From the NCBI GenBank assembly GCA_023133295.1, contig JAGLWT010000116.1, forward strand, positions 13,218 through 77,217: 64,000 nt of DNA, given 5' to 3'. Position numbers and translations under genes: made by a program. This document shows, piece by piece, positions 9,208 to 47,834 of the stretch. Source of the stretch: a bacterium. GTDB taxonomy: Bacteria; AUK180. The notes under the pieces are model-generated. The model was not told where the DNA came from, did not search any database, and saw nothing but the letters and a program-made list of their open reading frames with translations. Each line of letters starts with the position of its first letter. Within the stretch, counting starts at the first letter, position 1.

Positions 9208-9209
9208 AA

Positions 9210-10315: not shown

Positions 10316-10322
10316 TTTAGAT

Positions 10323-10411
<89 letters not shown>

Positions 10412-10450
10412 GATTTGAAAAGGATGCTTTTTCAGCTTCCTTTGAGTTTG

Positions 10451-10861: not shown

Positions 10862-10863
10862 TC

Positions 10864-13805: not shown

Positions 13806-13831
13806 AAAATAAATCCTCCAATCAAAATAGT

Positions 13832-14782: not shown

Positions 14783-14789
14783 TATCTCC

Positions 14790-18035: not shown

Positions 18036-18258
18036 AGGACCTCCTATAATAATTGTTTAGATATTATACCAAATATATGTTTTGAATTCAATATGTCAAA
18101 ACTTATTGAGCGGTATTAAGATGCTGAAAAATAATTTCTGCAGTTTTCCTTTCTCCTTCCGAAGTAAAATGAAAATTCTGAGGGTCTCACCATTTCACTC
18201 TCAACTTAATTTTACTTTTGTGGAGCGGCCGGTTTTGGAGATCCGTGAATAATAAGTA

Positions 18259-18591
18259 TTAGTTCTCCTGCTTATTCTCCAGAATAATTTCTATATAGGG
18301 ATTTTTCTCAGAATAAATATCGTTGAGGCCGACATATCTCCATTGCTGTCTGTTTGGAGTTCCGGTACTATCATGCAAAAAAATCAATATTGGCTTATAT
18401 GCTTCTTTGAATTTCAGATAGCATATTAACGTATTTTCATCCTTTCGAAAACTGTACCCCTGAAAAACTACTGGGCCACAATCTCTATTAATCATAATAT
18501 CCGGAGATAAATCTATTTCTGACTTACTTTTCGCACATTTCTGCAGATAGAACTCTGTTGATAACCTATCGAAATAAAATGGATACGCCAA
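18259..18591 (-). pseudogene. Orphan or truncated copy of the C-terminal domain shared by the GT-C-like membrane proteins at 21108..24877
   Basis: YLKFKEAYKPILIFLHDSTGTPNRQQWRYVGLND aligns with FLRFEKYKPIYLFFHDNFEKPTYQKWRYIDYKLLD from the C-terminus of the 601-aa protein. There is no membrane domain upstream. Confidence 0.5.
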
Positions 18592-18884
18592 CTCTGATTT
18601 CGATTCAAAAAAGCTTTCCCGAGAAAAAGGTCGATGGCAGGATCAATGTCACTTCTAAATACTCTTTTATTTTAAAATATCATATGAGTATTGAAGTTAA
18701 CTGAAAGGTTCTCCGAAGAGAGTAAGATCATATCGCTTCTTAATTCTGAAAATATCACCTCGCTGAATCCTATATTGTGAAACCGCCAACGCAGATACCC
18801 GTCAGATATGACTTTAATATTGTGTGGGGACTCAAATGATGGCATTTTTTCAATTAAACCTCTATTGTTGGTATTTTTCCTGCT

Positions 18885-20231
18885 TTGATGTATAATTTAC
18901 CTATGAAGGCAGTAATAATTGGCGCGGGATTAGCCGGTATCAGCGCGGCAAAATCCTTGCATGAAACAACTTTGTTCGACATGATCACATTGCTGGAAAA
19001 GAATCCGTATATTGGCGGAAGCGCCCACTCATTTTCCTTTGACGGTCTTCTATTTGACACTGGACCGCATCGTTTTCACACGCATAGCAAAGAGCTTAAA
19101 TCCGAAATAATATCTCTCTTTCGTGAAAGTGAGTTGGTATTGAAGAAAAAATCCAGCTCGATTTTTTTCAGAGAAAAAATATTGAACTACCCGATAGAAA
19201 TGAGTGATGTTCTCTTCAAACTACCATTAACCGATTCCGTTTCTTCGCTTAGTTCCTACTTATCTTCAAAGATCAGAAATGGCTTCAGACAGCAGGAACC
19301 CGCGAATTTCGAGGAGTATATAATTTCTAATTTCGGAAGAAAACTATATAATATCTATTTCCGCCCGTACACCGAAAAAATGTGGCATATGCCCGCCAAG
19401 GACATCTCCTCTCTCTGGGCAACGGAGAGGATCCCTTTGGCATCTTTTTCAAAGCTACTTCTAAAAACTGTCGTATCTCTATTCAAGCGGCGTTTCAAAG
19501 AGAGCCACCCTCACTCTCCATATGAAACCCTTTTTCTTTATCCCGAAAACGGCATAGAGATGATCTCACAGCGCCTGATACCCGGGGGCATTGAATTATT
19601 AAAAGGATTTGAAGTAAAGAGTGCTGTAAATAACGGAGATAGGCTGACCGCTGTATCTAACGGAGACATGATAGTTGAAGGCGACCTTTTCATTTTTACA
19701 AATCCGCTGCCGCAAACCGCACGGATGTGTTTAAACACCGACGCAGCAGATCTGAAATACCTGCCGATACATATGTTTTTTATTCCGATCGAAACCGCAC
19801 GGATATCCCGTAACCACTGGATATATTTTCCGGATACAAAAGATGTTTTCTACAGGGTATCAGAGATGAAAAATTTCACAAACACATACCCGGAGAACAG
19901 GACCTCGCTCATTGTTGAAGTTGGAGAATTGCACAATGACAGCGTGGACGAAACTTTCGAGCTCATTATCAAGCAGCTTTCAGAAAAGGGACTCCTGCAA
20001 GCCCGGCATATCCGTAAGGGTAATTTTAAATATCATTTTCTGAAGAACGGATATCCTATATATAAAAAGGGTTTTGAAGCAAAAAGGGAAATGATGTACT
20101 CAAAACTCGGCCATATAAAAAATGTAGGCATTGCGGGCAGGCAGGGGCTGTTCTCATATTTGAATATGGACGCGGCAATACTATCCGGCAGAAGGACGGC
20201 GGAAAATTTACTTACAGAGCTTAAGAACTGA
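18885..20231 (+). CDS. FAD-dependent oxidoreductase, UDP-galactopyranose-mutase (Glf)-like
   Basis: MKAVIIGAGLAGISAA dinucleotide-binding motif (the likely true start is the ATG at 18903). GGSAHSFSFDGLLFDTGPHRFHT closely resembles the Glf GG..(x)..GPHIFHT motif. At 448 aa it is longer than canonical Glf. Confidence 0.5.
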   Translation: MMYNLPMKAVIIGAGLAGISAAKSLHETTLFDMITLLEKNPYIGGSAHSFSFDGLLFDTGPHRFHTHSKELKSEIISLFRESELVLKKKSSSIFFREKILNYPIEMSDVLFKLPLTDSVSSLSSYLSSKIRNGFRQQEPANFEEYIISNFGRKLYNIYFRPYTEKMWHMPAKDISSLWATERIPLASFSKLLLKTVVSLFKRRFKESHPHSPYETLFLYPENGIEMISQRLIPGGIELLKGFEVKSAVNNGDRLTAVSNGDMIVEGDLFIFTNPLPQTARMCLNTDAADLKYLPIHMFFIPIETARISRNHWIYFPDTKDVFYRVSEMKNFTNTYPENRTSLIVEVGELHNDSVDETFELIIKQLSEKGLLQARHIRKGNFKYHFLKNGYPIYKKGFEAKREMMYSKLGHIKNVGIAGRQGLFSYLNMDAAILSGRRTAENLLTELKN

Positions 20232-20819
20232 TAATCGTCCTGAAAACGATGAAGCCGTCTTTTTCATATACTTTTTCAAAATTCAGATCTGCAGTCTTTT
20301 CCACCAGGAAGGGTTTTTCAGGGATCCATTGATTAGAATATGCCCGCATATCTTCAAGGCTCACTACCTCTAAAGGAATGAGATTGTTCTTTTTCCCGAA
20401 AAAATACGGGTTGGGAACTATATAATTGATCCGGTTCCTTAAAACCATCTTTTTCATCTCTGCAGGGGTGATATCGGGATGGAAAAAGTCATCGTATTCC
20501 CTTTTTCTATGAAGAACATCCGCGGCCGCGGGATTTGCCACCAGCGGCCATACATGGAATGCGTAATTGTCCGTGGATGTGGCGATATGATAGGCTGTCC
20601 ATTCATCGGAAAGAATATTTTTTTCTCTATTTTATTGTCTGTAAAATAAGTAATGACGCCGGGGAGTTTCGCTTGATCACCCTTGGGTATATGGCGGTTT
20701 AGCAGTGAGAAATTCCGCTTAATGTTGCCTGTATTGAAAAACATCAAAAGGAGTATAATGATACAGATAGTTCCGATAATATAGGGCCGCTTAATTTTCT
20801 TCAGAAGTAACGCCGCCAC
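20221..20819 (-). pseudogene. Frameshifted, N-terminally truncated paralog of the 773-aa membrane protein (26215..28536)
   Basis: Two overlapping track ORFs in different frames. One reads KGDQAKLPGVITYFTDNKIEKK. The other reads NILSDEWTAYHIATSTDNYAFHVWPLVANPAAADVLHRKREYDDFFHPD...NYIVPNPYFF. Together they align collinearly with residues about 500-773 of the 773-aa protein (KLPEIIRYFNKNNIKGGNIISDHWTSYHMAIFTNNYAFAIWPLVADPNAKDVLQREKDYRIFFNE...YIILNPYFY). The frame switches within an A7 homopolymer near 20622-20630. Confidence 0.65.
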
Positions 20820-21107
20820 ATAAGCAATAATAAGAAATACCGTGATAATGTTCGGGAGCTTTGATGCGTATGCACTTGAAATCAGTTTTGATATCAGAGG
20901 AACAAAAAATGGGTTATCGGGTCCCCGATGTAATCGGGGTTTCCAAGGTCACACGCTCAATAACGATAATGACAGTACTTTTTTAGTCATTCCTGTCCCA
21001 TATTAAGCATGTACTCAACTTGATTGGTTGTGCGGGGTAAACTGCATCGTGATAATCTCATTTTCAATTCTTTCCTTATCAACCTACCAACCTATCAACT
21101 TATTTAC

Positions 21108-22913
21108 TTAATTCACTGATATTTCCATTTTGTAATTATTTTTATCTCCAACGGGATAAATGGGCTTCAAATTATCATCGGTAAACAGAATATAGCCATT
21201 TTTGACATCACCTTTAATCTCCATATCAATTTTTACATTTTTTTCTGAATCAAGTAACTTATAGTCAATATATCTCCATTTTTGATAGGTAGGTTTTTCG
21301 AAGTTATCATGAAAAAACAAATATATCGGTTTATATTTTTCAAATCTTAAAAAAGTGATCAGTGTCTTTTTTTCTTCCTTTATTTTTATTGAATAACCTC
21401 TAAATCTAAAATATTTAAAATCCTTATTCAATATATTTTCCGGATTCATTTCAATTCTTTTGTTATTTGCAACTCTATACAATTTTGTATCAATTAAACT
21501 CCGTTCAAAGATAATCGGGAAGGTGTTGTTCCCACATATAAATGTTCCTTTTATAAAAAGATCAAAAGGAAGTTTCGTTTTTCTACTGTAAGATTTCATT
21601 AACATAATATTATACGGTAATTCATTCTTTATAATTAAATTTTCTAAATTTGCATTTGTAGCGATTAACATATCCGCTTTCATTTTTCCAAAATCAAGTT
21701 CCGGAATATTATTTTTATAAAACAAATACCTACTTGCTTCACCGCTTACAGCATAGATTTTCTTATTTTCGTTATCGTTAATTACTTTGTTTCCGACCTC
21801 CGCTGCCGTCTTTGAGTAATCGTAAAATCCTGTAATAAATATTAGAGAAAATGAGATTGCAAATATTAGTTCAAATACACTAAATTTTCTTTTAAATAGA
21901 TTATCTCTTGAATAAAATATAATGAACGGAAATATTAAAGAAAAATTCCTTACCGTTGGCTGCGGATACACAATTATAATTGCAAAAGATATAAAAAGTA
22001 ACCACAAAATATTTTTAAGATCAAATAGCAAAAGGATAGAAATAAGCAAATAGAGAGAAATAATGAATGCAATAATTTTTGAAATATCCGTATTCAAATA
22101 GATACAAAGAAATAATATAGGTAAAAGGAAAAAATACATTTTCTTTTTTCGGGATAAATAGATTAGGATTGGTAATGTAAGAATAGCTAAGTTAATTGGA
22201 ACCGAAAATACTTTTTGAAAAAATCCTATCCTATTTCCGTAATGGTAATCTCCTCTCCATACCAAGGCATCCAAAATAACATTTCCCCCTTTTTCAATAT
22301 AACATATTAGGATATAAAGAAAAATAACAATGATTGGAAAAAAGTAAATGTATACTTTCTTATCTTTTCGTATGATCATATCTATTAGAAAAAACAAGGC
22401 AACTAAAATTATAGCGTAATTTGTTAGAAGTGAAAAGGACAAAAACAAAGATGATAGAATAATATCTTTTAATTTTCTACTTTTTTTATAATCTTCATAT
22501 TTTAAGAAACTTAATATCAGAAAAACAAAGCAGTATGCTTCATGCATAAATGAATTAACAAACAACAAAACAATTGGTGAAATAAATACCAGAAATATTA
22601 GATATTTTTTAGCGGTATATTTTCTAATTATCAGCATAAACACAAAAAGGTAGAGCAAACTTGAAAAAAGATAAAATAAAAATATGTCCTCCTGAATTGG
22701 GAAAAGCGAGGCAAAGAGTAATAAAAGCGGCGGATGCGTATCATTATATACATAAGATTCTTTACCGTAATATGAAAAAGAAGCATTAAATAAACCGCCA
22801 TTTTTGATTGATATCGCGCTAATTAAGTTTTTGGAACTATCCCAAAAGGGAGGGATGAAAATAGTTACTAACACCAGTACGGTTAAAATTATAATGAGAT
22901 ATTTCTTTTTCAC
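21108..22913 (-). CDS. Multi-TM membrane protein, GT-C fold ArnT/PMT-like (GT39/GT83-type) putative glycosyltransferase with a conserved C-terminal soluble domain
   Basis: More than ten predicted TM helices. The first extracytoplasmic loop contains NDTHPPLLLLF, like the HPPL motif of PMT_2/ArnT-type GT-C enzymes. The C-terminal about 110 aa (FLRFEKYKPIYLFFHDN...YQKWRYI...VKNGYILFTDDNLKPIYPVGDKNNYKMEI) is shared with the protein encoded at 22925..24877. Confidence 0.45.
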   Translation of the reverse strand: MKKKYLIIILTVLVLVTIFIPPFWDSSKNLISAISIKNGGLFNASFSYYGKESYVYNDTHPPLLLLFASLFPIQEDIFLFYLFSSLLYLFVFMLIIRKYTAKKYLIFLVFISPIVLLFVNSFMHEAYCFVFLILSFLKYEDYKKSRKLKDIILSSLFLSFSLLTNYAIILVALFFLIDMIIRKDKKVYIYFFPIIVIFLYILICYIEKGGNVILDALVWRGDYHYGNRIGFFQKVFSVPINLAILTLPILIYLSRKKKMYFFLLPILFLCIYLNTDISKIIAFIISLYLLISILLLFDLKNILWLLFISFAIIIVYPQPTVRNFSLIFPFIIFYSRDNLFKRKFSVFELIFAISFSLIFITGFYDYSKTAAEVGNKVINDNENKKIYAVSGEASRYLFYKNNIPELDFGKMKADMLIATNANLENLIIKNELPYNIMLMKSYSRKTKLPFDLFIKGTFICGNNTFPIIFERSLIDTKLYRVANNKRIEMNPENILNKDFKYFRFRGYSIKIKEEKKTLITFLRFEKYKPIYLFFHDNFEKPTYQKWRYIDYKLLDSEKNVKIDMEIKGDVKNGYILFTDDNLKPIYPVGDKNNYKMEISVN

Positions 22914-22924
22914 ATCAATAATCT

Positions 22925-24877
22925 TTATTTTATCTCCATTTTACAGTTATTTTTATCTCCAATGGGATAAATGGGTTTCAAATTATCATTGGTAAACAGG
23001 ATATAACCGTTTTTGACACCACTTTCAATCTCCAGATCAATTCTTACATTTCCGTTCAGATCAAGCAAGTAGTGAGCAATATATTTCCATTTTTGATAAT
23101 CAGGTTTTCCGATATTATCATGAAAAAAAGCATAAGTCGGTTTATATTTTTCAAATCGTACGAAAAGACTCAATATCTTTTCTTGTTCATTCTCTTCAAT
23201 TGAGTAGCCTATAAATTTAAAATACTTAAAATTCATATTTATAATATGTTCCGGTTTCACTTTTCTTGTCTTTATTTTAGCGAAGTGATTTTGTCTATCA
23301 AATCTGAAAATATTAATATTTTCCAATTCAACATTGGATAATGAGTACGGTAATATTCCTAAGTTATTATCATAAAATCCTGCATGTGCCTTGGCGTTCA
23401 TTATTCTATATGGAAACTTACTTTTATAAATAACTTTTTCTATGTGAAGCAGATCCGGTCTAATACTATTTTTTAATTCAGCTGGACATGAATAAGTTGG
23501 AATGATCATTATATCATTTTCCTTTAATTCATTTGAATTCCAGCAATAATATTTAGCATCTATCTTCTCTAAATAGTATCTAAAGCCCCATTCACCCATA
23601 AACCAGACTCTGTTGTTTTTAACAGTAGATTTGATTTCATCAGCAAATCTTTTATAGCTTTCTGCAAATCTATAATCAGCATAAGTAATGCCGATGGTAT
23701 TTCCTAATGTAAGTATTAGCGTAATTGCAATGAACACTTTTTTTAATACTAAATTTAAATTCAAATTTATTAGATCATACGAAATAATAATTGTAATAAC
23801 CGGCAATGTAATTAATAAATATCTTGCAATGCCCAACGGCATAATTAAAGTACAAATGATTAAATACAAAAGAAAGCAAATTGATAAGAATTTTGTAACA
23901 GAATTATTGGGTCTTATAAATTCTTTAATAATTCTAAACATAATTAATAATCCGGAAAATAGAAATATTATAAATAATGACCTGCTTATAAAATTGAAAT
24001 TCCTGGTAAAAAATATCGTACAAGCGATAGTTATTAGTAATTGAATTATTAATAACTTTTTATTTACCGACTTAAGAAGATACAGAGCTATTATTGATAT
24101 GGGGAAAATAGTGGTGGAGCCTATCACTATAATATTTGAAATAAATTTAGGAATGAGCATTGATATAGCCCTTAGCTTTAAATTTGTGTCACCGGGCCAC
24201 ATTAACGCATATAATGGATGTGGAAATCCAAATTTTATTGTTGTGAAGATTATCCAGATCAATATTGATGATAAACAAATTAAAAAGGGTATATAATAAA
24301 TAAATTTCTTTTTTTTGAAAATAAGATAGTACAAAACAAACAAAAAAAGTAGAAATATACCCCGATAATCAATTCCCCATGATATTATTGAAGTAAGTCC
24401 TGATAAAATTAAGAGTAACACATTGTCGTTTTTTACTCCTTTTATAAAAAACAAAAATGCTAATAAAAAAAATGAAAACATTGGAACATCACTCATTATA
24501 CTAATTGACGAAGTAAACAGTATTGAAGAGAAGGAAAACAGAAAGATTGCTGTAAAAGAAAACAAATCAAATTCCTTTAGTATAAAGTACATAGAAACAA
24601 TAGATAAAATATAGAAAATAATATAAAATAAATGAAAATAAGTTTCATTTACCTCTCCTACAATTATATAACAGAAATGACAGTATAAAAAGTTTAGAGG
24701 TGGCTTGGTAAATTTGTAATACGGTACAGTTTCACCAAGAAAATATACATAATTCTCCTTCGAAAAGAAATTCTTTATAGGAACTTGACCATAAGGTGTC
24801 CTCTGAATAGATTCAATTGTCTTATGGTCATCTATATTGAATGGTTTGTTTACAAAAATTAACTGGACTGATAACAT
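22925..24877 (-). CDS. Multi-TM GT-C-like putative glycosyltransferase, tandem paralog of 21108..22913
   Basis: Same architecture. Loop motif YKFTKPPLNFLY. C-terminus FVRFEKYKPTYAFFHDNIGKPDYQKWKYI...GVKNGYILFTNDNLKPIYPIGDKNNCKMEIK. The 3' ends are about 85-90% identical to 21108..22913 at the nucleotide level (compare 21125-21200 with 22935-23010). Confidence 0.45.
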   Translation of the reverse strand: MLSVQLIFVNKPFNIDDHKTIESIQRTPYGQVPIKNFFSKENYVYFLGETVPYYKFTKPPLNFLYCHFCYIIVGEVNETYFHLFYIIFYILSIVSMYFILKEFDLFSFTAIFLFSFSSILFTSSISIMSDVPMFSFFLLAFLFFIKGVKNDNVLLLILSGLTSIISWGIDYRGIFLLFLFVLYYLIFKKKKFIYYIPFLICLSSILIWIIFTTIKFGFPHPLYALMWPGDTNLKLRAISMLIPKFISNIIVIGSTTIFPISIIALYLLKSVNKKLLIIQLLITIACTIFFTRNFNFISRSLFIIFLFSGLLIMFRIIKEFIRPNNSVTKFLSICFLLYLIICTLIMPLGIARYLLITLPVITIIISYDLINLNLNLVLKKVFIAITLILTLGNTIGITYADYRFAESYKRFADEIKSTVKNNRVWFMGEWGFRYYLEKIDAKYYCWNSNELKENDIMIIPTYSCPAELKNSIRPDLLHIEKVIYKSKFPYRIMNAKAHAGFYDNNLGILPYSLSNVELENINIFRFDRQNHFAKIKTRKVKPEHIINMNFKYFKFIGYSIEENEQEKILSLFVRFEKYKPTYAFFHDNIGKPDYQKWKYIAHYLLDLNGNVRIDLEIESGVKNGYILFTNDNLKPIYPIGDKNNCKMEIK

Positions 24878-25390
24878 GATGATCAGTAATAAAAAAAACT
24901 TAATTCCTTTTAAATTATATTTTTCTATAATAACTAACCATCCTTTTCTTTAAGGAACCTTTTCTCGCTTCCTTCGGTCATTTCAGATTTTTTTAAATCT
25001 CCTTCTCTATCGTAAGTCTGCTCCTTTTTGACATATTGCCTTCATTTCATCCGAAAGGACGAATTCCATTTCGCTACGCTGCATTCCATTCGCCCTTCAT
25101 GGTGTAAACTATTGTTTGTCTCACTTTCAAGGGAGAGCAGGACATTGTGACCTATCAGATTAGTTGAAATATATCGGATTTTTCAGAAAAAGTCAAATAA
25201 TTTATTGTTTCTATATATCAAAATATGCGTTTTTTTATTCTAACCATTTTGATTTGATAATATTTTTAAGTTCACGATTGCCTTTAACATTTAAATGATA
25301 AGTTTTATCGAGAGAGAGTTTATCCGGAATAAAAATGCAACTTTTTATATCTAATTCCTTATTAATTTTTTCAATATCATCCACCATTTT

Positions 25391-26218
25391 TTAAAAAAAA
25401 TAATACTTATTATCTTTTTTGTTCTGTGTCAACATATAATTCCCAAGTATAATAATTGACAAATTGTATTCATTCTGAATCTTTTTTATAAGATACCTAT
25501 ACCTATTTAATCCTTCATTATAATCTTTACTGTACTTTTTAAAATATTCATAACTGTCTTCTCCTTGATAGTATTGGCTTTTCTTTTTGTCTTTAATATT
25601 TAATGATAAATACATCGGGTGCAAAAGAGCAATCAATGGATCATTATTTATAATCCAGGGAAATGCTCTTTTATTGGGATAAACTATTGAATATTCATTC
25701 CCATTTTTAACTATTGTCGGGGCTGATCCTGGATAACGAAAGAACTCTCCAAAATCATTTCCTATATAGAAAATAATAAGCACATTTGAACCTTTTGAGA
25801 TATTATATTTTTTAAGTAAAAGATACTCTTGTATCGGCGAATATGTAATAACCCCGAAATTATAAAAATAATACCCATTCCCCTCTTTATTTAACAGAGA
25901 TGTAAAGAGATTGTTGTTTATAACATAATTATCAGTTTGAGAATCTCCCAATACATATATAGGAATCTCATTATCTCTTATTTTTCTGCAATTTCGATTA
26001 CCATATTTCCCTGTTTTGATCTTTGCCTTTGATCGTCGAGCCTGATAAAATTCATTGTGTTTAATTCCAAGTATATTATCATAAACATAGGAACCATATC
26101 CATTTTTACCCTTATTAAAACCACTGATATTACAATGAACAAATAAAATAATATCCAATAATAAAAAACAAATTATAATAAAAAGTAGTATCTTTAAAGC
26201 TTTTTTGAAGATATTCAT
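25391..26218 (-). CDS. SGNH/GDSL-family hydrolase-like protein (possible glycan O-acyl esterase or transferase)
   Basis: N-terminal TM anchor. IPIYVLGDSQTDNYV gives a GDS(x) block-I motif. Overlaps the upstream 773-aa gene by 4 nt. Confidence 0.45.
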   Translation of the reverse strand: MNIFKKALKILLFIIICFLLLDIILFVHCNISGFNKGKNGYGSYVYDNILGIKHNEFYQARRSKAKIKTGKYGNRNCRKIRDNEIPIYVLGDSQTDNYVINNNLFTSLLNKEGNGYYFYNFGVITYSPIQEYLLLKKYNISKGSNVLIIFYIGNDFGEFFRYPGSAPTIVKNGNEYSIVYPNKRAFPWIINNDPLIALLHPMYLSLNIKDKKKSQYYQGEDSYEYFKKYSKDYNEGLNRYRYLIKKIQNEYNLSIIILGNYMLTQNKKDNKYYFF

Positions 26219-28536: not shown

Positions 28537-28786
28537 TTTTAGTTATTATATAAATCTTGGAAATCCCGAAAAACCATGAATAAGCATTTTTTATCAGGGA
28601 TTTTATGATTTTTTTAAAGCGGAGTGTAACAATACTGATATAATTTTCCTTATTATGGTAAGGGCTTTTTATCCCAAAAAGTAAACGAAAATATGGATTT
28701 GAATTTAAAACAAATCTGGACTGTATCCATGTAAACTTAAATATCAGTTTATTTTGAAATATTCTTTCTATTACGGTCATAGTCAT
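28526..28786 (-). CDS. Small hypothetical protein (86 aa) whose start and stop both overlap the neighbouring genes
   Basis: The ORF overlaps the start of the 773-aa gene (28526-28536) and the stop of the methyltransferase gene (28783-28786), consistent with translational coupling. No recognisable family. It could also be a spurious bridging ORF. Confidence 0.3.
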   Translation of the reverse strand: MTMTVIERIFQNKLIFKFTWIQSRFVLNSNPYFRLLFGIKSPYHNKENYISIVTLRFKKIIKSLIKNAYSWFFGISKIYIITKNDN

Positions 28787-29646: not shown

Positions 29647-29750
29647 ATTTAAATATTTAGTTTTCCATGATTCTGAACAACTCTACTCCTTCACATCGAG
29701 GAGAAGAGAAATAATTATTGTAAAGCAAAAGACTGCTTTTGCTATTTATT

Positions 29751-31412
29751 TCATTTCTCAATTTTATAATCTCCCATTACGAGAATATCGATCCCTGTGC
29801 CGCTAAATGTATTTATCGCATCCTGAGGAGTGCATACGATCGGCTCTCCCCTGATATTGAAAGAGGTATTCAAAACCAACGGGATGCCCGTAAGTTTTTC
29901 AAATTCCCGTATTAGAGAATAATATCTCCCATTCTGTTCTTTACTTACCGTTTGAACCCTTGCCGTTCCGTCGACATGTACAACTGCAGGTATTTCTTTC
30001 CGCTTTTGCTGAACTGTATCGAAAACAATTGTCATATAAGGAGATTTACCGCAGCCGATAAAATAATCTCCGGCTTTTTCCTCAAGAACACTTGGTGCAA
30101 ACGGGCGGAAACCCTCTCGATGCTTGACCTTTTCATTAATAAGGTCTTTCATGTCCTTCTTTCTGGGATCCGCAAGAATGCTTCTGTTGCCGAGGGCGCG
30201 TGGTCCGAATTCCATTTTCCCCTGATACCAACCGACTATTTTCCCCCTGCTTATTTCCAAAGCCGTATCCTTTTCTATTTCACTTGATCTTGTAAAATGA
30301 AGTTTATTCTTTTTGAGAACATTCAATATCTCTTCATTGTCAAAAGCAGGACCCAGATAGGCATTATTCAACGGCAATTTACTTTCATTACCAAGTATAT
30401 TATAGTATCCGTACAGAGCGGCGCCAAGCGAAGTTCCCGCGTCATTGGAAGCGGGCTGGACATACATATCTTCGATATCGGTTTCTCTGAGCAACCGTCC
30501 ATTAGCAACCGAGTTCAGGGCGACGCCTCCTGCCATACAGAGATATTTCAAGGAGTATTTGTTGAGATAATACCGTACTACCTCTAGAAGCACTTCCTCT
30601 GTAACTTTTTGTAAAGAAGCGGCCATATCCATTTCAAGATCCGTAAATTCAGTAGCATTGTCATGGGGATAGAAGTTATGCTTTCTTTCAAATTTTTCAG
30701 TGATATAACTCTCCCAGCCATGTGAGAGATTGAATTTTGAAAGATCAAAAGAAAACCGTCCTTTGCCTACCCTTACAAGTGACATGATCTCAGAAAAATA
30801 CTTCGGTGTACCGTAAGGAGCCAGGCCCATGAGCTTACCTTCTCCATTATGTGCTTTGAACCCAAGATACTGAGTGATATCAGAATACAGCATTCCCAGG
30901 GAATGAGGGTAGTTCACATGTGCCACCTGTTCAATAAGGTTACCCCTTCCGATTCCAACGGTCATCGTCTCGAATTCCCCTGAATGATCAATTGATAGTA
31001 TAAGGGATTCGTCGAAGCCGCTCGGATAGAAAGCGGAGGCCATATGCGCCATATGATGTGATATCTTGACAAAGCGGGCATCTCTTAATATATCAATAGC
31101 CCTTACCTTTTTCCTGATGCCCAAAAGAGATGATACATATGAGCTCCTGGAATGAAGGTATTTTAACGATGAGGGAAATCGCAGCAGAAGAAATCCCGCC
31201 CGCTGAAACAGCATGGGAGTATTGAGCCAGGGAAAAACGATCAGCTCAGGAGAAGTATCATACTTGTTGCCGATAAGCTCAAGGGATTCATGCGGAAAAA
31301 CCGATGTATGTTTTTCTCTTGAAAGACGCTCCTCCTCGATCGAGAATACGGATTCCCCTGAGATCACAGTTATAGAAGAATCATGTGTATAACAATTCAA
31401 TCCCAGTATCAT
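29751..31412 (-). CDS. Carbamoyltransferase, NodU/CmcH family
   Basis: MILGLNCYTHDSSITVI...EEERLSREKH...HHMAHMASAFYPSGFDESLILSIDHSGE...ALNS...SFN matches the NodU/CmcH N- and C-terminal domains along its length. Confidence 0.85.
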   Translation of the reverse strand: MILGLNCYTHDSSITVISGESVFSIEEERLSREKHTSVFPHESLELIGNKYDTSPELIVFPWLNTPMLFQRAGFLLLRFPSSLKYLHSRSSYVSSLLGIRKKVRAIDILRDARFVKISHHMAHMASAFYPSGFDESLILSIDHSGEFETMTVGIGRGNLIEQVAHVNYPHSLGMLYSDITQYLGFKAHNGEGKLMGLAPYGTPKYFSEIMSLVRVGKGRFSFDLSKFNLSHGWESYITEKFERKHNFYPHDNATEFTDLEMDMAASLQKVTEEVLLEVVRYYLNKYSLKYLCMAGGVALNSVANGRLLRETDIEDMYVQPASNDAGTSLGAALYGYYNILGNESKLPLNNAYLGPAFDNEEILNVLKKNKLHFTRSSEIEKDTALEISRGKIVGWYQGKMEFGPRALGNRSILADPRKKDMKDLINEKVKHREGFRPFAPSVLEEKAGDYFIGCGKSPYMTIVFDTVQQKRKEIPAVVHVDGTARVQTVSKEQNGRYYSLIREFEKLTGIPLVLNTSFNIRGEPIVCTPQDAINTFSGTGIDILVMGDYKIEK

Positions 31413-32374
31413 TCAATTCTCCGTATATGATCGGCCAGAACCCCTGCAATATATCTATTGCCTTCCGGAGAAAAGTGAATATCATCCACATAAAGGTCAT
31501 CATAAAGCAAGAGATCGGTTTTGCGCATTTCCTGTGAGATATCCACAAAATCTACTCTGCATTCCTGAAACACTTCCCTCATTACTTCCTGATATGAAAA
31601 GTCCGCTCTATTGAGTAATTGATATCTTAGCGGAGTAATTATAAATATGGGGTGGATCTTTCTCTTCTCGCAGGTCATTTTTATTCTCTCTATCTTCTTT
31701 GTCAGATCTTTGCGCAAATACGGATCATTATATTTCATGGCAGCGGAAGCGTAAAATTCTTTGCTGTTATAAGCTTTTTCATAATTTCCGGCAAAGAGGA
31801 GCTTTGCTAATGCAAATAAATATGAATACGAAAAAGGGCGCTTTGTTACTATAACCTCGGCGTCTGTGTCAAGTTCCAGAAAACCTATCCCGTTCAGATG
31901 AAATGCATAAAGTATATCATCGATAAAATACTGCCATACTACAATTTCGGGGGGATTTTTCTGGAGATTCTTCTCCAATATCACAATATTTTGATCAAGT
32001 CCATAGCCGCAAACCCCCATATTGTGAACATTGAATTCTTTCAATTCGCCTTGAAGAAACACCGGGTAGGTTTCATCGTCCTCAACTCCCAGGCCGGCAG
32101 TAATGGAATCGCCTATGCAGATAATGTTTTTTTCTGACTTCTCTATGGTATTCAAATTCCTGTACCCTGATGAATTTATTGTAAATTTCTTATTTCGCCA
32201 CATATATGACGATGATTTTCTATAACGATATCCAAGTTCACTGTCTTTTTCGAAAATTCTTCTGTCATAATCCTGTAGCTTTGATATGGGGTCCAATAGT
32301 CTTGCAAGGCCTTCAAAAAGCAGAAAAAGGATCAAAAAAAACAATAAATACTTAGACAGCCGTTTTATCAACAA
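31409..32374 (-). CDS. SGNH/GDSL-family hydrolase-like protein
   Basis: N-terminal TM. IICIGDSITAGLGV block-I motif. Later DDIHFSPEG, similar to the DxxH catalytic block. Overlaps both flanking carbamoyltransferase genes. Confidence 0.55.
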   Translation of the reverse strand: MLIKRLSKYLLFFLILFLLFEGLARLLDPISKLQDYDRRIFEKDSELGYRYRKSSSYMWRNKKFTINSSGYRNLNTIEKSEKNIICIGDSITAGLGVEDDETYPVFLQGELKEFNVHNMGVCGYGLDQNIVILEKNLQKNPPEIVVWQYFIDDILYAFHLNGIGFLELDTDAEVIVTKRPFSYSYLFALAKLLFAGNYEKAYNSKEFYASAAMKYNDPYLRKDLTKKIERIKMTCEKRKIHPIFIITPLRYQLLNRADFSYQEVMREVFQECRVDFVDISQEMRKTDLLLYDDLYVDDIHFSPEGNRYIAGVLADHIRRIE

Positions 32375-34043
32375 TTAAATAATCTCCTAATATAAGCACA
32401 TCAATATCTGTTTTCAAGAATGTCTCTATCGCCTCGGCAGGAGAGTTGACGATAGGTTCTCCCCTGATATTAAATGAGGTGTTCAATACAACCGGAACAC
32501 CTGTGATCATTTCAAATTCTCTGATAAGATCATAGTATCCCGGATTTTGCTTTCTATTTACCGTCTGAACCCTGGCCGTACCGTCAATATGCACTACCGC
32601 GGGAATATCATTTTTCTTTTCATCCAATACATCAAAAACAAAAAGCATAAATGGAGAAGAGACACACCCTTTAAAATACTCCCCTGCCTTCTCTTCGAGA
32701 ATGCTCGGCGCAAAAGGTCGAAATCCCTCGCGATGCTTTACCCTTTCATTCAGAATATCTTTCATTTCCCCTTTTCGGGGATCCGCAAGAATACTTCTAT
32801 TGCCAAGGGCGCGGGGGCCGAATTCCATCTTTCCCTGATACCAGCCGACTATCTTGCCGCGGCTTAATTCCTGAGCTGCTGCTTTTTCAATATTAGCCCG
32901 CTTACTATAGGGAAGTTTATTCTTATGGAGTTGAATCTTGATATCATCATCACTGTAGCTGGAACCAAGGTATGCATTATCCATGATATATTTCCGTTCC
33001 CGCCCCAATATTGAATGTTGAACATATAGCGCTGCTCCGAGCGCGGTTCCCGCATCATTTGCCGACGGTTGAACAAAAATATCCTCAAAGGGACCTTCCC
33101 TTTGAATGAGACCGTTTGCAACCGAGTTCAGCGCCACGCCCCCAGCAAGGCAGAGTTTTTTCTCGCCGGTCTCTTCATAGAGATTCTCGGAAAGCAAAAG
33201 CATATACTTCTCCAGTATTCTCTGAAGGGATGCTGCCATATTCTCATGGAATGTTGTTATTTCGCTTTCCGGGTCTCTTCTTGGACCGAATCGGCGGATG
33301 AACTTCTTTGAGATATCCCTTTCTACTGAATTCTGAAATTCAAAATAACTGAGGTCTATTCTCATCCTATTTTCCTTCACGGTGATCATCTCATCAAGAT
33401 CATTGAAATACTCCGGCTTTCCGTAAGAAGAAAGGCCCATTACCTTTCCATCGCCGGAATGCACCTGAAACCCCAGATATCTTACAATGGCGGAATAAAA
33501 ATAGCCTAATGAATGGGGAAATGGATTTTCGTATATTTTCTCGATACGGTTTTTCGATCCCTTTGCCAAAAGATAGGTGGATCTTTCTCCGGAACCGTCA
33601 ATTGACAATATTGCCGCGCTGTTAAAAGGTGTGGGAAAGAAAGAAGATGCCGCATGGGCAAGGTGATGTTCTACAAAATATGTCTTTTTTACTTTCAGCG
33701 GAATATATTTTCTGACATTCAGCATCTTAAAAAAATCTCCGCCATGTGTTCTACCCCAACTCAGGCTTTTTGGGAAATTCCTTATTATGGTGGGTAGTCT
33801 TCCCTGAATTCCCAGGAGAGGTTTCACATAATATGCAAGGATAATCTCCTCATCCTTTGCCAATATTCCATTTTTAAAAAGATAATCAAATATTCCATGC
33901 GGAAATTTTCCGGTGTATTTTTCTCTGTTGAAACGCTCCTCTTCGGCTGCGAAGAGGATACTGCCGCCTTCATCGATGACGGCAACAGAGCTAAGATGCC
34001 TAAAGCAATTCAATCCGATTATTTTCATCTGTAAATTATACAT
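32352..34043 (-). CDS. Carbamoyltransferase, NodU/CmcH family (paralog)
   Basis: IIGLNCFRHLSSVAVIDEGGSILFAAEEERFNREKYTGKFPH...HHLAHAASSFFPTPFNSAAILSIDGSGE. The C-terminal 170 aa are nearly identical to the first carbamoyltransferase (RALGNRSILADPRK...KHREGFRPFAPS...LNTSFNIRGEPIV). Confidence 0.85.
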   Translation of the reverse strand: MYNLQMKIIGLNCFRHLSSVAVIDEGGSILFAAEEERFNREKYTGKFPHGIFDYLFKNGILAKDEEIILAYYVKPLLGIQGRLPTIIRNFPKSLSWGRTHGGDFFKMLNVRKYIPLKVKKTYFVEHHLAHAASSFFPTPFNSAAILSIDGSGERSTYLLAKGSKNRIEKIYENPFPHSLGYFYSAIVRYLGFQVHSGDGKVMGLSSYGKPEYFNDLDEMITVKENRMRIDLSYFEFQNSVERDISKKFIRRFGPRRDPESEITTFHENMAASLQRILEKYMLLLSENLYEETGEKKLCLAGGVALNSVANGLIQREGPFEDIFVQPSANDAGTALGAALYVQHSILGRERKYIMDNAYLGSSYSDDDIKIQLHKNKLPYSKRANIEKAAAQELSRGKIVGWYQGKMEFGPRALGNRSILADPRKGEMKDILNERVKHREGFRPFAPSILEEKAGEYFKGCVSSPFMLFVFDVLDEKKNDIPAVVHIDGTARVQTVNRKQNPGYYDLIREFEMITGVPVVLNTSFNIRGEPIVNSPAEAIETFLKTDIDVLILGDYLIVDKTAV

Positions 34044-34083
34044 TATCTAATAATTTATGCAAGATTCTTCCGATTGGAGGAAA

Positions 34084-34788
34084 TCATTTTTTCAGTCTTT
34101 CGCTGAAGAGGACAAAAAAGGCATAAATAGCATCTATCCAATGAATTTTGCTTTCCTCGACCTTTCTCGGAGTATAAGATATCGGGATCTCACAGAATCT
34201 ATAATTGAATTTAAAGATCTTTGCTGTGATCTCACACTCCATTTCAAATCCGTCATATTTCAGATTCAACGACTCCAGAATGCCTTTTCTGAACACCTTA
34301 TAGCCCGATGCTTCATCTGTAATATTTTTTCCATATAGTATCCGCACCGTCAGATTAATGAGTTTATTCGCCAGGAGCCGGGGAATTGATTTCATTTTTA
34401 CTTTTTTCAAAAATCTTGAACCGTATACAACATCGGCCTGCCCTGCTATGATCGGGAGTAACAAACCGGATATCTCTTCCGGATAATACTCCAGATCGGC
34501 ATCCTGAATAACAACAATATCACCGGAAGACACTTTCAAGCCTTTTTTTATTGAATAACCCTTTCCTCTGTTCACGCGGTTTTCACAAAGGATATCATAA
34601 AGATTGAAGTTCTCTTTCAATATTGCGTTCGAACTGTCTGTCGAACCGTCGTCCACTACGATGACTTCATGTTTAAATGAAAGCTTGGCGATCCGCTCAA
34701 GGACCTTCAGGATAGTTTCCGATTCATTGAAAGCCGGAATGATTATCGAGATCATCGCGTCAAATTCCGCGTTCTTCATATTTCTCAT
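34084..34788 (-). CDS. Family-2 glycosyltransferase, polyprenol-phosphate sugar synthase (Dpm1/ArnC/GtrB)-like
   Basis: ISIIIPAFNESETI, VIVVDDGSTDSS, VVIQDADLEYYPEE (DAD) and GSRF motifs at 234 aa are typical of Dpm1-like GT2 enzymes, which supply lipid-linked monosaccharide donors to GT-C enzymes. Confidence 0.7.
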   Translation of the reverse strand: MRNMKNAEFDAMISIIIPAFNESETILKVLERIAKLSFKHEVIVVDDGSTDSSNAILKENFNLYDILCENRVNRGKGYSIKKGLKVSSGDIVVIQDADLEYYPEEISGLLLPIIAGQADVVYGSRFLKKVKMKSIPRLLANKLINLTVRILYGKNITDEASGYKVFRKGILESLNLKYDGFEMECEITAKIFKFNYRFCEIPISYTPRKVEESKIHWIDAIYAFFVLFSERLKK

Positions 34789-37310
34789 TTTTCATCCCAT
34801 AAGATCCGGTACAATAAGGGGTAGTTGCTTCTATCTTCTATTGTGATATCGGGAAGGGATGATCCTTGGTCATTAAAATCGTAGTAGGTGAACAAATATC
34901 TAAAATAATCCTCCATTACAAGCGTCTTAGCACTCGCAAATTCATTGTATATCTTCAATGAATCAGCAGGACCCCAATCCTTATCAATATATTTTTTTGT
35001 GTACATCTCAATGGTAGTCCTTATAAGATCTTTTTCATCCTGATTCAGTCTTTTCTCCTCCTTTAGAAGAAAGGGAAAAAGTTCAGGAAAAAATAGACCG
35101 ACAGAACGAAGATCCCTGATAAACCCCTCGCCCAGGACAGAATATGTGTTTCCGTATAATTTATTATGACGCAGAGCAAAGCGGCAAGGTTCAATAATGC
35201 TACTTTTCATTATTTTTTCGTAAAGTTCCTTGAAAGCAGAACTTTCCGAAGGATTTATCAGGTATTTAAGATAGGGATATTCTGAAAATTCTCCTTCAAG
35301 TATCATACTCGCAAAAGAACTGGTGCAATCTGGATCGATCCTGTACGGGAGATTCCATATGGTGTAAAGCGGCCCTTTCAGGTAGGAGTAGGAAGAGAAA
35401 TATTCCGCTAAGACAACGATATTCTCTTTTTCGGCAATCTTCGTATCGAAATTAAATAAGTAATAGAGCGGATTGAAAATATTCTCTTCGGAATCCTTCA
35501 GAAAAGGAGGAAAAGGGCTGTAAAGGTCTTTCAGGAGAAGATATTTTCTGTCTTTTTCAATTCTAACGAGAGCCGATATTTTATCAAATCTCTTTTTGCC
35601 AAATCCAAATGGTGAATTTCTTAAGGATATTATTTCCTCGATCTCCTTCCTTCTGTCTGATAATTCCCCATAAGTCCTTGCGGCTTCATAATTTCCAAGC
35701 AGTATATTTATTACCGCTATATTTTCTGTGGTATATATCGGTTTGCGAAGCAGTCCTTTTCCCTCGCCGTATTCACCTGTTCGGAATTTAGCGATTGCCA
35801 ATGAAAAAAAGTTTTCCGCGGAGGGGTCGTATTTGACCAGCTCCTCAAGTTCGTCTGAGATCTGCTGCCATCTATTTTCAAAGCGGTAGTATTTCAAAAG
35901 CATTTTCCTTGTGTGTTTCAGTTCCGGTACCAGATATTTAGAAAAAAGGAGTAATTCTTCCGCCTCGCTTTTCTTTCCGCGCTGAAGCAGAATTTCTGCT
36001 TTCAGATTTAAAAGTTCTGGATAAAGATCCTCATCCAATGCAGAATCAATATATTTAATCGCCTGTTCATAATCACCTTTTTTATAGGATTCCACTGATT
36101 TTGCATTGAATTCAAGATAGCGCTTATAAAAGATCTGATGATTTCCAAGTTCGCCTGTGAACTGGATTATATTAATAGAGATCGGGATCAGCAGGAGTGC
36201 CCATTTTATGCTTCCGGGCAGGGCTATGCTCCGGATTTTATATTTGAACGGATAAAATAGGAGTATGAAGATCAAGACAGCGATCGGCTGATGCAAAGGA
36301 AAATCAAATATAAGGGATATTAAAAATGCCAGAAGGGGGGCGCTTCGGGATGTTGCCTGACCAAGAAGATATTCTGATAAGGAAATAAATACGATCAGAA
36401 ATAAGAAAATGCCGATGAATCCTCCCTCAACACCCATGTGTATGATCTCGCTATGGGCGCGCCTGACCAGAAATTTGGAGGTGGAGTAAAGCCCTTTTTC
36501 TTTACTTACTGCAGCAAGGTTCTTCTTATATGCCGATGGAAACCTGCCTAGGCCGGTGCCGAAAGGATTTTCAATTACTGTTTTCAAGCCGGTCCTGATT
36601 ACGGTTCTTCTGGTATTTAAAGGGTGAGCAACGGTTATTACAAGGAAAAATCCCAGAATGATGGCAGTATAGAATATTATTCTCCTCAGAATACTTTTTT
36701 TGATTAATGAGATCAAAATAGACAGCAGGGTTATTGCTATCATTATTTTAGAAAATGTCATCAAAAGAGCTATCCCTGAAACAAATAGAAAAAAGTAATT
36801 TCTCTTTTTGAAAAAGAACATTTCTGCAAGAAATCCCATCGTCAGTACTACCGCCAGTTCATTAGGATTCCCCATAGTCGAGAACACACGCTTACCCGAC
36901 CAGTCAAATTCCCAGAATGAAAAATCTATCTTGAAAAATTGCAGGACTGCGTACAGCGAAACAAGGAATATCGAAACACGCAGCCAACGATAAAGAATAT
37001 CGGTATTGAAACTGGATTCCGAGATCAAAAGAAAAAGCAATACCTGAACAAGGCAGAAAAATCCACACCAGGATGGATTGACAGCAAAGAAGACCAGAGC
37101 GGCGAAAAAGATCAGAATCGATCTGAATGTAACCCTCTTAATAGTAAAAACCACGGGCAAAAAAGATATTAACAGTAATTTGGGAAGAAGAAAAGAACTT
37201 TTAAGTATTGGAAGAAATATCAGTACCGATAGAAATATCAATGCCCCGGCAAAATGTACGGTATATGTTTTCTTTCCCATTGATTTTTTTTCTACATCTT
37301 GTTTCTGCAT
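34785..37310 (-). CDS. Wzy_C (O-antigen ligase / PglL-type oligosaccharyltransferase)-like polytopic membrane protein with C-terminal TPR repeats
   Basis: About 10-12 TM helices with a HSEIIHMGVEGGFIG loop, resembling the Wzy_C His/Arg catalytic loop. The C-terminal about 450 aa contain TPR-like repeats (YEQAIKYIDSALDEDLYPELLNLKAEILLQRGKKSEAEELL...). Confidence 0.5.
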   Translation of the reverse strand: MQKQDVEKKSMGKKTYTVHFAGALIFLSVLIFLPILKSSFLLPKLLLISFLPVVFTIKRVTFRSILIFFAALVFFAVNPSWCGFFCLVQVLLFLLISESSFNTDILYRWLRVSIFLVSLYAVLQFFKIDFSFWEFDWSGKRVFSTMGNPNELAVVLTMGFLAEMFFFKKRNYFFLFVSGIALLMTFSKIMIAITLLSILISLIKKSILRRIIFYTAIILGFFLVITVAHPLNTRRTVIRTGLKTVIENPFGTGLGRFPSAYKKNLAAVSKEKGLYSTSKFLVRRAHSEIIHMGVEGGFIGIFLFLIVFISLSEYLLGQATSRSAPLLAFLISLIFDFPLHQPIAVLIFILLFYPFKYKIRSIALPGSIKWALLLIPISINIIQFTGELGNHQIFYKRYLEFNAKSVESYKKGDYEQAIKYIDSALDEDLYPELLNLKAEILLQRGKKSEAEELLLFSKYLVPELKHTRKMLLKYYRFENRWQQISDELEELVKYDPSAENFFSLAIAKFRTGEYGEGKGLLRKPIYTTENIAVINILLGNYEAARTYGELSDRRKEIEEIISLRNSPFGFGKKRFDKISALVRIEKDRKYLLLKDLYSPFPPFLKDSEENIFNPLYYLFNFDTKIAEKENIVVLAEYFSSYSYLKGPLYTIWNLPYRIDPDCTSSFASMILEGEFSEYPYLKYLINPSESSAFKELYEKIMKSSIIEPCRFALRHNKLYGNTYSVLGEGFIRDLRSVGLFFPELFPFLLKEEKRLNQDEKDLIRTTIEMYTKKYIDKDWGPADSLKIYNEFASAKTLVMEDYFRYLFTYYDFNDQGSSLPDITIEDRSNYPLLYRILWDEK

Positions 37311-37352
37311 CTATATTTCACCCGAAGAATGATCTACAGGTTCTTTCTGTTA

Positions 37353-43868: not shown

Positions 43869-43877
43869 GGCAGCCCC

Positions 43878-46940: not shown

Positions 46941-46946
46941 ATACTC

Positions 46947-47831: not shown

Positions 47832-47834
47832 GAT

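Follow-up and report, generated by a model that had tools for sequence, protein, structure and literature searches.

Organization of the locus

The locus described here lies within a 64,000-nucleotide stretch of DNA, referred to below as the window (contig JAGLWT010000116.1, positions 13,218 to 77,217 of the forward strand, GenBank assembly GCA_023133295.1), from a bacterium of the GTDB lineage AUK180. An initial annotation made from the sequence letters had described positions 18259-37310 of the window as a large lipid-linked glycan-modification locus, and our Pfam, NCBIfam, and PDB-sequence searches recovered every component it had named, each where it had been placed. Every gene in the region 21108-40253 is on the minus strand. 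Along that strand, from 5' to 3', come ComEC, a Wzy_C-type membrane protein (wzy841), a family 2 glycosyltransferase (GT2), an O-carbamoyltransferase (cbm563), an SGNH hydrolase (sgnh321), a second O-carbamoyltransferase (cbm553), a methyltransferase, a GT-C fold glycosyltransferase (m773), a second SGNH gene, and two more GT-C genes (m650 and m601). Beyond m601, gene fragments at 20236-20915 and 18193-18591 bracket a plus-strand flavoenzyme (18885-20231). The reading that we develop below is that these genes may together modify glycans outside the cytoplasm and that they belong to a strain-variable island.

The GT2, Wzy_C, and tailoring enzymes

The GT2 (34084..34788, minus strand) is a soluble protein of 234 residues; 4 nt are shared between its start and the stop of wzy841. 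It matched Glycos_transf_2 at Pfam with 106.7 bits and carries the motifs DAD (residues 96-98) and GSRF (residues 123-126). Its best four NCBIfam matches were to AglJ, ArnC, PpgS, and a haloarchaeal Dol-P-hexose transferase, its best four relatives among PDB sequences were P. furiosus DPMS (5mlz, E-value 2.5e-22) and three ArnC structures (~5e-17), and ordinary Leloir GT2 families scored much lower in both collections. The closest characterized relatives are all polyprenyl-phosphate glycosyltransferases, in agreement with the earlier proposal of a Dpm1-like polyprenyl-phosphate sugar synthase. From its sequence the enzyme would be of the polyprenyl-phosphate glycosyltransferase type, and "Dpm1-like" is a fair description by resemblance and not by orthology, the cut-offs for which it misses.

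Immediately upstream, wzy841 (34785..37310, minus strand; 841 residues) was found by Pfam to combine a Wzy_C membrane domain with a TPR region (35691-36113) and a C-terminal domain of ~300 residues. The Wzy_C match was below the gathering score (22.7 bits against a cut-off of 31.7, E-value 9e-5). The residues H286, E295, G297, and G300 are shared with an 841-residue Wzy_C protein (PF04932) of a sister genome and with P0002, a Wzy_C+TPR protein from Elusimicrobiota, and with this motif present in two Wzy_C-scoring homologs the original Wzy_C+TPR reading holds. NCBI (PGAP) names the product "O-antigen ligase family protein"; a word-indexed search gave one distant protein, and a metagenome scan found no relatives. 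The gene junctions from wzy841 to cbm553 are tight or overlapping.

The two O-carbamoyltransferases, cbm553 (29751..31412, minus strand) and cbm563 (32352..34043, minus strand), are paralogs of the TobZ/NodU/CmcH family with 51% identity to each other. Both contain Carbam_trans_N and Carbam_trans_C (190-253 bits at Pfam), both align over their full length to GdmN, NovN, and TobZ (for cbm563 the PDB matches, over residues 5-560, had E-values of 1.3e-89 to GdmN and ~1e-80 to NovN and TobZ), and both keep the metal motif as HHLAH or HHMAH (the latter at residues 119-123 of cbm553). TobZ-family enzymes require ATP and carbamoyl phosphate, as established for TobZ, and neither protein has a transmembrane (TM) segment; the two carbamoyltransferases must therefore act in the cytoplasm.

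A genome scan with cbm563 gave 8 loci, of which only one (L007, from uncultured bacterium binchicken_co125_1166) pairs a carbamoyltransferase with an adjacent GT2 and GT-C. There, at 6409-10274, the closest carbamoyltransferase relative that we found (50% identity) sits between a 247-residue GT2 and a 471-residue PMT_2 GT-C. Upstream there are methyltransferases and a Wzx-like flippase, and downstream a pair of B12-radical-SAM genes; the locus is a possible second module of GT2, carbamoyltransferase, and GT-C. The idea that such a trio is widely conserved was dropped, as L007 was the only instance among the 8 loci and its proteins are distant.

The remaining tailoring genes are two SGNH hydrolases and a methyltransferase. 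The intact hydrolase, sgnh321 (31409..32374, minus strand), matched Lipase_GDSL_2 with 51.9 bits against a cut-off of 32.9 and has GDS at residues 88-90 and DDIH at 297-300; because it has an N-terminal membrane anchor (TM 1-31), its catalytic domain should be extracytoplasmic. The second SGNH-like gene (25235..26218, minus strand) also encodes an N-terminal membrane anchor, and an in-frame TAA (25391-25393) ahead of the His block (YHLN) cuts the gene, the truncated ORF being 25391-26218. A 50-codon open reading frame (ORF) at 25235-25387 carries the frame on past the TAA and holds the catalytic His block, and the read-through product aligns across the stop to a 349-residue sister homolog, as far as its end. 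The truncated product was found in NCBI, Logan, and ENA assemblies; it scored 18.6 against 23.6 bits, and its GDS and DxxH motifs do not fall in a single frame, the stop lying between them. The methyltransferase (28783..29646, minus strand) is a class I S-adenosylmethionine (SAM) enzyme (Methyltransf_23, 80.3 bits) with an N-terminal four-Cys zinc ribbon (CxxC at 4-7 and 26-29) and no TM segment, and is cytoplasmic.

GT-C enzymes and a shared C-terminal domain

The gene m601 (21108..22913, minus strand) encodes an intact PMT_2/GT39-like GT-C with about 11 TM segments in residues 1-364, a periplasmic region, and a C-terminal beta-sandwich (21111-21464) that recurs in m650 and m773. Its neighbor m650 (22925..24877, minus strand; beta-sandwich at 22928-23272) is likewise PMT_2/GT39-like and is without TM1. 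The match of m650 to PMT_2 covered the whole model and barely passed (26.4 bits against a cut-off of 26.1), and NCBI (PGAP) names this product "glycosyltransferase family 39 protein". There was no direct PMT_2 match to m601 at Pfam; m601 and m650 are 30% identical over 631 residues, and a joint profile of the two found a protein with PMT and PMT_2 domains at an E-value of 7e-21. In alignment with m601, m650 begins 11 residues into TM1, and the sequence ahead of its start codes for no such helix, a pattern suggesting that m650 is probably 5'-truncated. In loop 1, m601 (in which TM1 is present) has FWDSS and m650 has NIDDH, so that the acidic pair is WD or DD, not the canonical DE.

The third gene, m773 (26215..28536, minus strand), encodes an intact GT-C of a DUF6077/DUF6541-type family with about 15 TM segments, a periplasmic domain (26602-27054) resembling that of an oligosaccharyltransferase (OST), and the shared C-terminal domain (26218-26589). 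We found no Pfam, NCBIfam, or PDB-sequence match to m773 itself. Exhaustive phmmer searching collected 125 homologs covering residues ~5-595, and when 40 of these were run against Pfam they matched DUF6077 (9), DUF6541 (7), DUF1616 (2), and PTPS_related (1). An AlphaFold2 model built from the homolog alignment had a pLDDT of 80.1 and a pTM of 0.81, and all 18 of its 18 Foldseek matches at E-values of 2e-4 or less were to DPY19, STT3, AftA, or PglB, an outcome on which two fold-comparison methods agreed. Residue D121, at the beginning of the loop following TM4, was invariant in 40 of 40 family members. The WWDYG motif is absent from m773, the corresponding stretch being IISDHWTSY, of which only SD is conserved across the family, and there was no sequence match to a solved OST. 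We accordingly rejected m773 as a true oligosaccharyltransferase, WWDYG being absent; as modeled, it is a GT-C with OST-like architecture that lies outside the oligosaccharyltransferase family. The membrane paralogs had been proposed as GT-C enzymes on the understanding that an O-antigen polymerase or transporter fold would overturn the proposal, and what we found was a GT-C fold for m773 by two methods and, for m650 and m601, the PMT_2 match, the PMT/PMT_2 homolog, and the 30% paralogy.

The C-terminal beta-sandwich is thus common to GT-C proteins of two different families (m601/m650 and m773). Its likeness is to carbohydrate-binding or Ig-like modules and not to domains that bind peptides; it had no Pfam and no PDB sequence match, and within the material searched was seen only in this cassette. 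By eye, the C-terminus of a PMT_2 protein elsewhere in the window (52510-54756) looked alike, and we rejected this candidate at an hhalign probability of 0.4%. That protein is a second PMT_2-type GT-C outside the island (748 residues, 44.4 bits), and its gene adjoins that of the MurJ lipid II flippase (54939-56510).

Searches for relatives of these proteins are to be read with the method in mind, since word-indexed homolog searches are nearly blind for such AT-rich membrane proteins: m773 recovered itself only, and the m601+m650 profile recovered itself and one PMT_2 protein. A metagenome scan with the m601+m650 alignment found no relatives, and phmmer searches of m601, m650, and m773 against PDB sequences gave nothing meaningful.

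Composition mosaic and gene damage

The composition profile and the per-gene GC content, overall and at third codon positions (GC3), set apart a cassette of five genes at 21108..29646 (GC 0.26-0.32). From m601 to the methyltransferase GC3 is 0.23-0.28, in the block from wzy841 to cbm553 it is 0.39-0.46, and in the flanks it is about 0.44-0.54; the cassette was presumably acquired from a low-GC donor. The locus had been taken for one coherent pathway unit, and this we could not uphold: it lies in a strain-variable island, and its make-up is that of a mosaic that includes a foreign low-GC cassette.

Next to the cassette are the remains of another GT-C. The remnant at 20236..20915 (minus strand) is frameshifted and corresponds to m773 residues 419-645 (tblastn, 43% and 36% identity, the 43% being to residues 515-645); it is matched by the m773-family HMM and has a native-like GC3 of 0.465, as expected of a resident member of that family. 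A C-terminal-domain remnant at 18193..18591 (minus strand), which includes the ORF 18259-18591, matched m601 residues 464-586 and m650 residues 533-650 by tblastn, and matched a local HMM of the shared C-terminal domain at an E-value of 6e-41. Judged by these matches, 18259-18591 and 20236-20915 represent the wreck of one fourth GT-C gene that has been split around the flavoenzyme gene. Because a native-GC m773-type remnant adjoins the cassette, the incoming cassette seems to have displaced a resident GT-C.

The flavoenzyme between the two fragments (18885..20231, plus strand; GC3 0.468, native-like) matched NAD_binding_8, Amino_oxidase, and GLF (26.9 bits against a cut-off of 26.3). Its best solved relatives were eukaryote-type UDP-galactopyranose mutases (UGMs), with T. 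cruzi UGM (4dsg) at an E-value of 3.5e-20, and it missed the Glf equivalog cut-off of TIGR00031 (68.6 against 303.75 bits). The proposal of a Glf-like enzyme thus stands insofar as the sequence is UGM-like, and the enzyme is not an orthologue of Glf; since the gene is on the opposite strand and between two fragments of a dead GT-C gene, its membership in the pathway is doubtful.

Exactly where the native-GC remnant of the GT-C gives way to the low-GC cassette we found a 65-bp repeat with an internal hairpin (20911..20975, plus strand; hairpin CGGGTCCCCGATGTAATCGGGG) by blastn, alignment, and pattern search. Its second copy is at 51896-51960 on the minus strand, intergenic and upstream of the second PMT_2 gene, and blastn aligned 58 bp of the two at 96.6% identity; the pattern search gave these two copies against 0 expected by chance. 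The repeat could be a recombination site, a REP/MITE-like element, or a small RNA. Within the cassette, the intergenic sequence 24878-25234 has 32% GC overall, and in its non-coding stretch 24940-25234 upstream of m650 a patch at ~24990-25180 appeared GC-richer by eye than the surrounding cassette (27% GC); 24940-25234 gave neither a repeat nor an Rfam match.

Such damage raises the possibility that the region is for the most part a dead one, in which glycan genes acquired horizontally are decaying and do little or nothing at present: m650 is 5'-truncated, the fourth GT-C is fragmented around the Glf-like gene, the nonsense codon of the second SGNH gene is reproduced in independent assemblies, and the island proteins are singletons at 90% clustering. 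The annotated "multiple GT-C" and "two SGNH" take in damaged genes; no more than two of the GT-C genes and one of the SGNH genes are whole. We nevertheless consider a defunct locus very unlikely, because ten genes are long, unbroken ORFs that have retained their catalytic motifs, the junctions from wzy841 to cbm553 are compact and overlapping, and pseudogene debris beside working genes is usual in variable glycan loci.

A strain-variable island

Sister genomes, which we picked through the 90%-identity clusters of ComEC and PGK, delimit the variable segment. By blastn of the window against the sister loci (L010-L016), 15436..37352 has no nucleotide match in the sister genomes, and on both sides (10298-15435 and 37353-50253) the identity is 92.6-95%. 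The island is 21.9 kb long, and the alignment of its right-hand flank begins at 37353, the final base of the comEC stop codon; from this stop to the start of the glycan genes there are 42 bp. The site is fixed on the chromosome, with comEC (37353-40253, minus strand; Competence and DUF4131) on one side and a porV-like/gap-pgk-tpi block on the other. The window comes from a metagenome scaffold of 125.5 kb. The region is chromosomal, since housekeeping genes lie on either side of it, with TIM, PGK, and GAPDH in 10864-13805 and the synthetase genes for ValRS and ArgRS in 58-62 kb, and some flank proteins are at least 90% identical to proteins labelled Candidatus Calescamantes.

The same step is seen at the protein level by tblastn. 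Flank proteins are 95-98% identical to those of the sister (ComEC 97.5%, a 663-residue protein 97.7%, GAPDH 98.5%, the PorV-like protein 94.9%), against 29-41% for island proteins (wzy841 and the GT2 29% each, a 1081-residue surface protein 40.8%); at 90% clustering the island proteins are singletons and the flank proteins have 8-9 cluster mates. At the island site the sister carries, in order, an SGNH-like gene, Acetyltransf_6, a methyltransferase, WbqC, and a spermine-synthase-like membrane protein, followed by the 841-residue Wzy_C protein, proteins of 339, 703, and 558 residues, two GT2s, and a 1110-residue surface protein. The 703-residue protein is a member of the m773 family, so that a sister GT2 of 238 residues co-occurs with an m773-family GT-C there as well; a carbamoyltransferase and a Glf-like gene are lacking from the sister island. 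The theme of the island (Wzy_C, short GT2, GT-C, SGNH, methyltransferase) is kept in the sister and the chemistry genes are changed.

The left border falls within the gene for the 1081-residue protein (14790..18035, minus strand), a secreted protein with a type IX secretion system (T9SS)-type C-terminal domain (FlgD_ig and CHU_C matches, below cut-off). Its C-terminal ~215 residues, the T9SS-type domain among them, are conserved at the nucleotide level and the remainder is 41% identical in the sister, so that relative to the sister the variable part of this protein and the glycan genes have been replaced as a single block. This fits the surface role that had been proposed for the glycan.

The block replacement also bears on an explanation in which the locus serves protein O-glycosylation, with m601 and m773 glycosylating the 1081-residue protein or other secreted proteins and with wzy841 as a PglL-type O-oligosaccharyltransferase whose TPR region binds substrates. 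The exchange of ectodomain and glycan genes across a border inside the surface-protein gene would be accounted for, the relatives of PMT_2 include protein O-mannosyltransferases, and the TPR is a protein-binding module. We think this explanation unlikely, as the peptide-binding WWDYG is absent, with SD in its place, the beta-sandwich is like carbohydrate-binding or Ig-like modules and not like peptide binders, and shared diversifying selection can by itself link two variable surface loci. A more specific proposal, that surface protein and glycan are allele-matched, would have the T9SS-type ectodomain and the glycosylation cassette exchanged together, the beta-sandwich targeting both GT-Cs to the co-inherited acceptor, and the carbamoyltransferases acting on a polyprenyl-phosphate monosaccharide; this conjunction strikes us as decidedly improbable.

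Two observations concern the flanks. In the conserved block 37353-51371, upstream on the strand of the glycan genes, ComEC and the 663-residue protein are accompanied by a ComEA-like protein (HHH_3) and by two very large proteins that combine lamin-tail domains with T9SS-type C-termini; the block looks like a DNA-uptake or surface-nuclease neighborhood. On the other side, a segment of ~0.85 kb (9416-10240) beside tRNA-Leu (10323-10411, the sole match in an Rfam scan of the window) has only 78% identity to L014 17416-18262 and a different relative position, as if another small rearrangement, the second, had taken place beside this tRNA gene.

A candidate extracytoplasmic glycan-modification system

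The reading that we favor, with moderate confidence, takes the locus as the greater part of a strain-variable surface-glycan island of 21.9 kb and has it work as a three-component-type extracytoplasmic glycan-modification system. Cytoplasmic tailoring of undP-sugars ahead of their export has a precedent in three-component systems (Kelly et al. 2024, PMC11127046): the ORF13 epimerase, a cytoplasmic enzyme, acts on undP-Ribf at that stage, and the ORF12 GT-C carries an Ig-like carbohydrate-binding module (CBM) that binds the acceptor O-polysaccharide (PMC11127046).

By this model, the soluble GT2 would produce a polyprenyl-phosphate monosaccharide at the cytoplasmic face of the membrane, and the two O-carbamoyltransferases, perhaps with the SAM methyltransferase, would tailor, ahead of export and on the cytoplasmic side, either the lipid-linked sugar or the nucleotide precursor from which it comes. 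A flippase encoded outside the locus would carry the donor over the membrane, where m601 (PMT_2/GT39-like) and m773 (STT3/DPY19/AftA-like fold) would transfer the sugar to an extracytoplasmic acceptor, the shared beta-sandwich perhaps serving both as a CBM-like module for a common acceptor. The membrane-anchored SGNH enzyme may then edit ester groups outside the membrane, and the Wzy_C+TPR protein may ligate or polymerize an Und-PP-linked glycan built elsewhere. Observed directly were the families and folds of the proteins, their topology, the damage to genes, and the island's mosaic and variable character; from family membership and topology we infer the steps, and with them the identity of the sugar, the step order, the substrate of the carbamoyltransferases, and the acceptor.

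Several results weigh against this model. The GT2 is far below every NCBIfam equivalog cut-off (AglJ 128 against 325 bits, ArnC 77.7 against 529, PpgS 70.8 against 370) and, with no hydrophobic segment, is without the TM or anchor helices that GtrB, ArnC, and archaeal DPMS have. Soluble catalytic subunits do exist in the polyprenyl-phosphate glycosyltransferase group, as in human DPM1 and mycobacterial Ppm1, so a missing anchor does not bar the GT2 from such activity. No flippase (GtrA, SMR, MATE) was found in any ORF of 18-37.3 kb, nor was a Wzx, Wzz, Wza, or ABC exporter domain by Pfam and NCBIfam, the latter as the initial annotation had it; the sole MOP-family protein in the window is MurJ (54939-56510), outside the island, and an 84-residue ORF of the public annotation (28526-28780) was rejected as a GtrA-like flippase, having no TM segment. 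Three frames are damaged (m650 without TM1, the second SGNH with its in-frame stop, and the fourth GT-C fragments), and the structure model of m601 was of low confidence. In L007 the GT2 and GT-C are distant from those of the island (27% identity and an hhalign probability of 31%), and in the other six loci of comparable size with carbamoyltransferase relatives there was no relative of the island GT2 or GT-C. Finally, the GT-C cassette is of different origin from the GT2/carbamoyltransferase block, and the two halves need not be one pathway.

This last point leads to a reading in which the halves are unrelated: a Leloir GT2 would extend an Und-PP repeat unit, the carbamoyl- and methyltransferases would modify nucleotide sugars or the repeat unit, wzy841 would polymerize or ligate, and the GT-C cassette, acquired separately, would draw its donors from elsewhere. 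The split in GC3 (0.39-0.46 in the native-like wzy841-cbm553 block against 0.23-0.28 in the foreign cassette) agrees with it, as do a GT2 with no membrane anchor and with scores below all equivalog cut-offs, and a PMT_2 GT-C outside the island (52510-54756) means that GT-C donors may be genome-wide. We regard it as quite unlikely, because polyprenyl-phosphate glycosyltransferases make up the best four of the GT2's family matches and likewise the best four of its solved relatives, a native-GC m773-type remnant shows that there was a GT-C in the locus before the cassette came, and the sister island also pairs its 238-residue GT2 with an m773-family GT-C.

If the three-component-type model is right, it extends this logic to a deeply uncultivated lineage and adds a new tailoring chemistry, the carbamoylation of a lipid-linked sugar; carbamoylation of a polyprenyl-phosphate monosaccharide would be an undescribed route to an extracytoplasmic carbamoyl group, analogous to the steps of ArnD and of the undP-Ribf epimerase. 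The island is also a clean natural case of cassette exchange at a fixed site in which a surface-protein ectodomain is swapped along, and the domain that occurs in both GT-C families offers a candidate acceptor-recognition module that can be tested. Our literature search found no paper on two TobZ-type carbamoyltransferases paired with a Dpm1/ArnC-like GT2 and GT-Cs. That pairing, the cassette-specific domain on two GT-C families, and the block exchange with a surface-protein ectodomain are what is unusual here. Current understanding is not overturned, as each enzyme is of, or folds like, a known family, and glycan loci that sit at fixed sites and are variable, mosaic, low in GC, and partly decayed are a classical finding. 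The overall interpretation given in the initial annotation survives in its family, GT-C, Wzy_C, and exporter readings, and needs revision in its gene counts, the role given to the Glf-like gene, the unity of the locus, and its remark that carbamoylated surface glycans are rare, which overlooked the conserved 7-O-carbamoyl heptose that WapO makes in Pseudomonas lipopolysaccharide (LPS) cores (PMC8005017).

Comparison with known systems

The closest parallels are the systems GtrA/GtrB/GtrC (Salmonella, Shigella), CsbB/GtcA/YfhO, and GT136 (Citrobacter youngae), which like the island join a polyprenyl-phosphate-sugar synthase to a GT-C in a strain-variable surface-glycan locus. The resemblance to the Citrobacter youngae GT136 system extends to the tailoring of a lipid-linked sugar in the cytoplasm (ORF13) and to a C-terminal Ig-like/CBM domain on the GT-C (ORF12). 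Unlike these systems, the island has no flippase gene, its GT2 has no anchor, and the tailoring would be by carbamoyltransferases and a methyltransferase; moreover its GT-Cs are PMT_2-like or of the DUF6077/DUF6541 type, and so differ from GtrC, YfhO, and GT136, a distinction drawn from their own family matches and not from direct comparison. With ArnC-ArnD-ArnT the island shares an ArnC-related GT2, a PMT_2/ArnT-type GT-C, and the logic of making an Und-P-sugar, modifying it at the cytoplasmic face, flipping it, and transferring it by a GT-C; however, it is without ArnA, ArnB, ArnD, ArnE, and ArnF, misses the ArnC cut-off, and would have carbamoylation in place of deformylation.

Among the Dpm1/Ppm1+PMT systems of eukaryotes and actinobacteria and the archaeal AglJ type, the likeness is in a GT2 that matches DPMS and AglJ best and in the PMT_2 type of m650 and m601. 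The island proteins differ in scoring well below the orthologue cut-offs, in having no MIR domain, and in a loop-1 pair of DD or WD instead of DE. The structural neighbors of m773 (STT3, AglB, PglB, DPY19) share no sequence similarity with it, and m773 departs from them in lacking WWDYG, in having about 15 TM segments as against 13, and in its extra beta-sandwich. Like WaaL, PglL/PilO, and some Wzy proteins, wzy841 has multiple TM segments and an H-x8-E-x-G-x2-G motif in a periplasmic loop; unlike WaaL and PglL it is below the Pfam cut-off and has an added TPR region and ~300-residue C-terminal domain. The carbamoyltransferases resemble TobZ/NodU/CmcH, WapO, GdmN, and NovN, with both Pfam domains above cut-off and HHxAH kept, and WapO is the member of this group that acts on an envelope glycan. 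At 173.5 against 1000 bits the island enzymes are not orthologues of NodU, and an arrangement for which our literature search gave no description sets them apart from other members of the TobZ/NodU/CmcH family, two paralogs lying in one operon beside a GT2 of the predicted polyprenyl-phosphate type.

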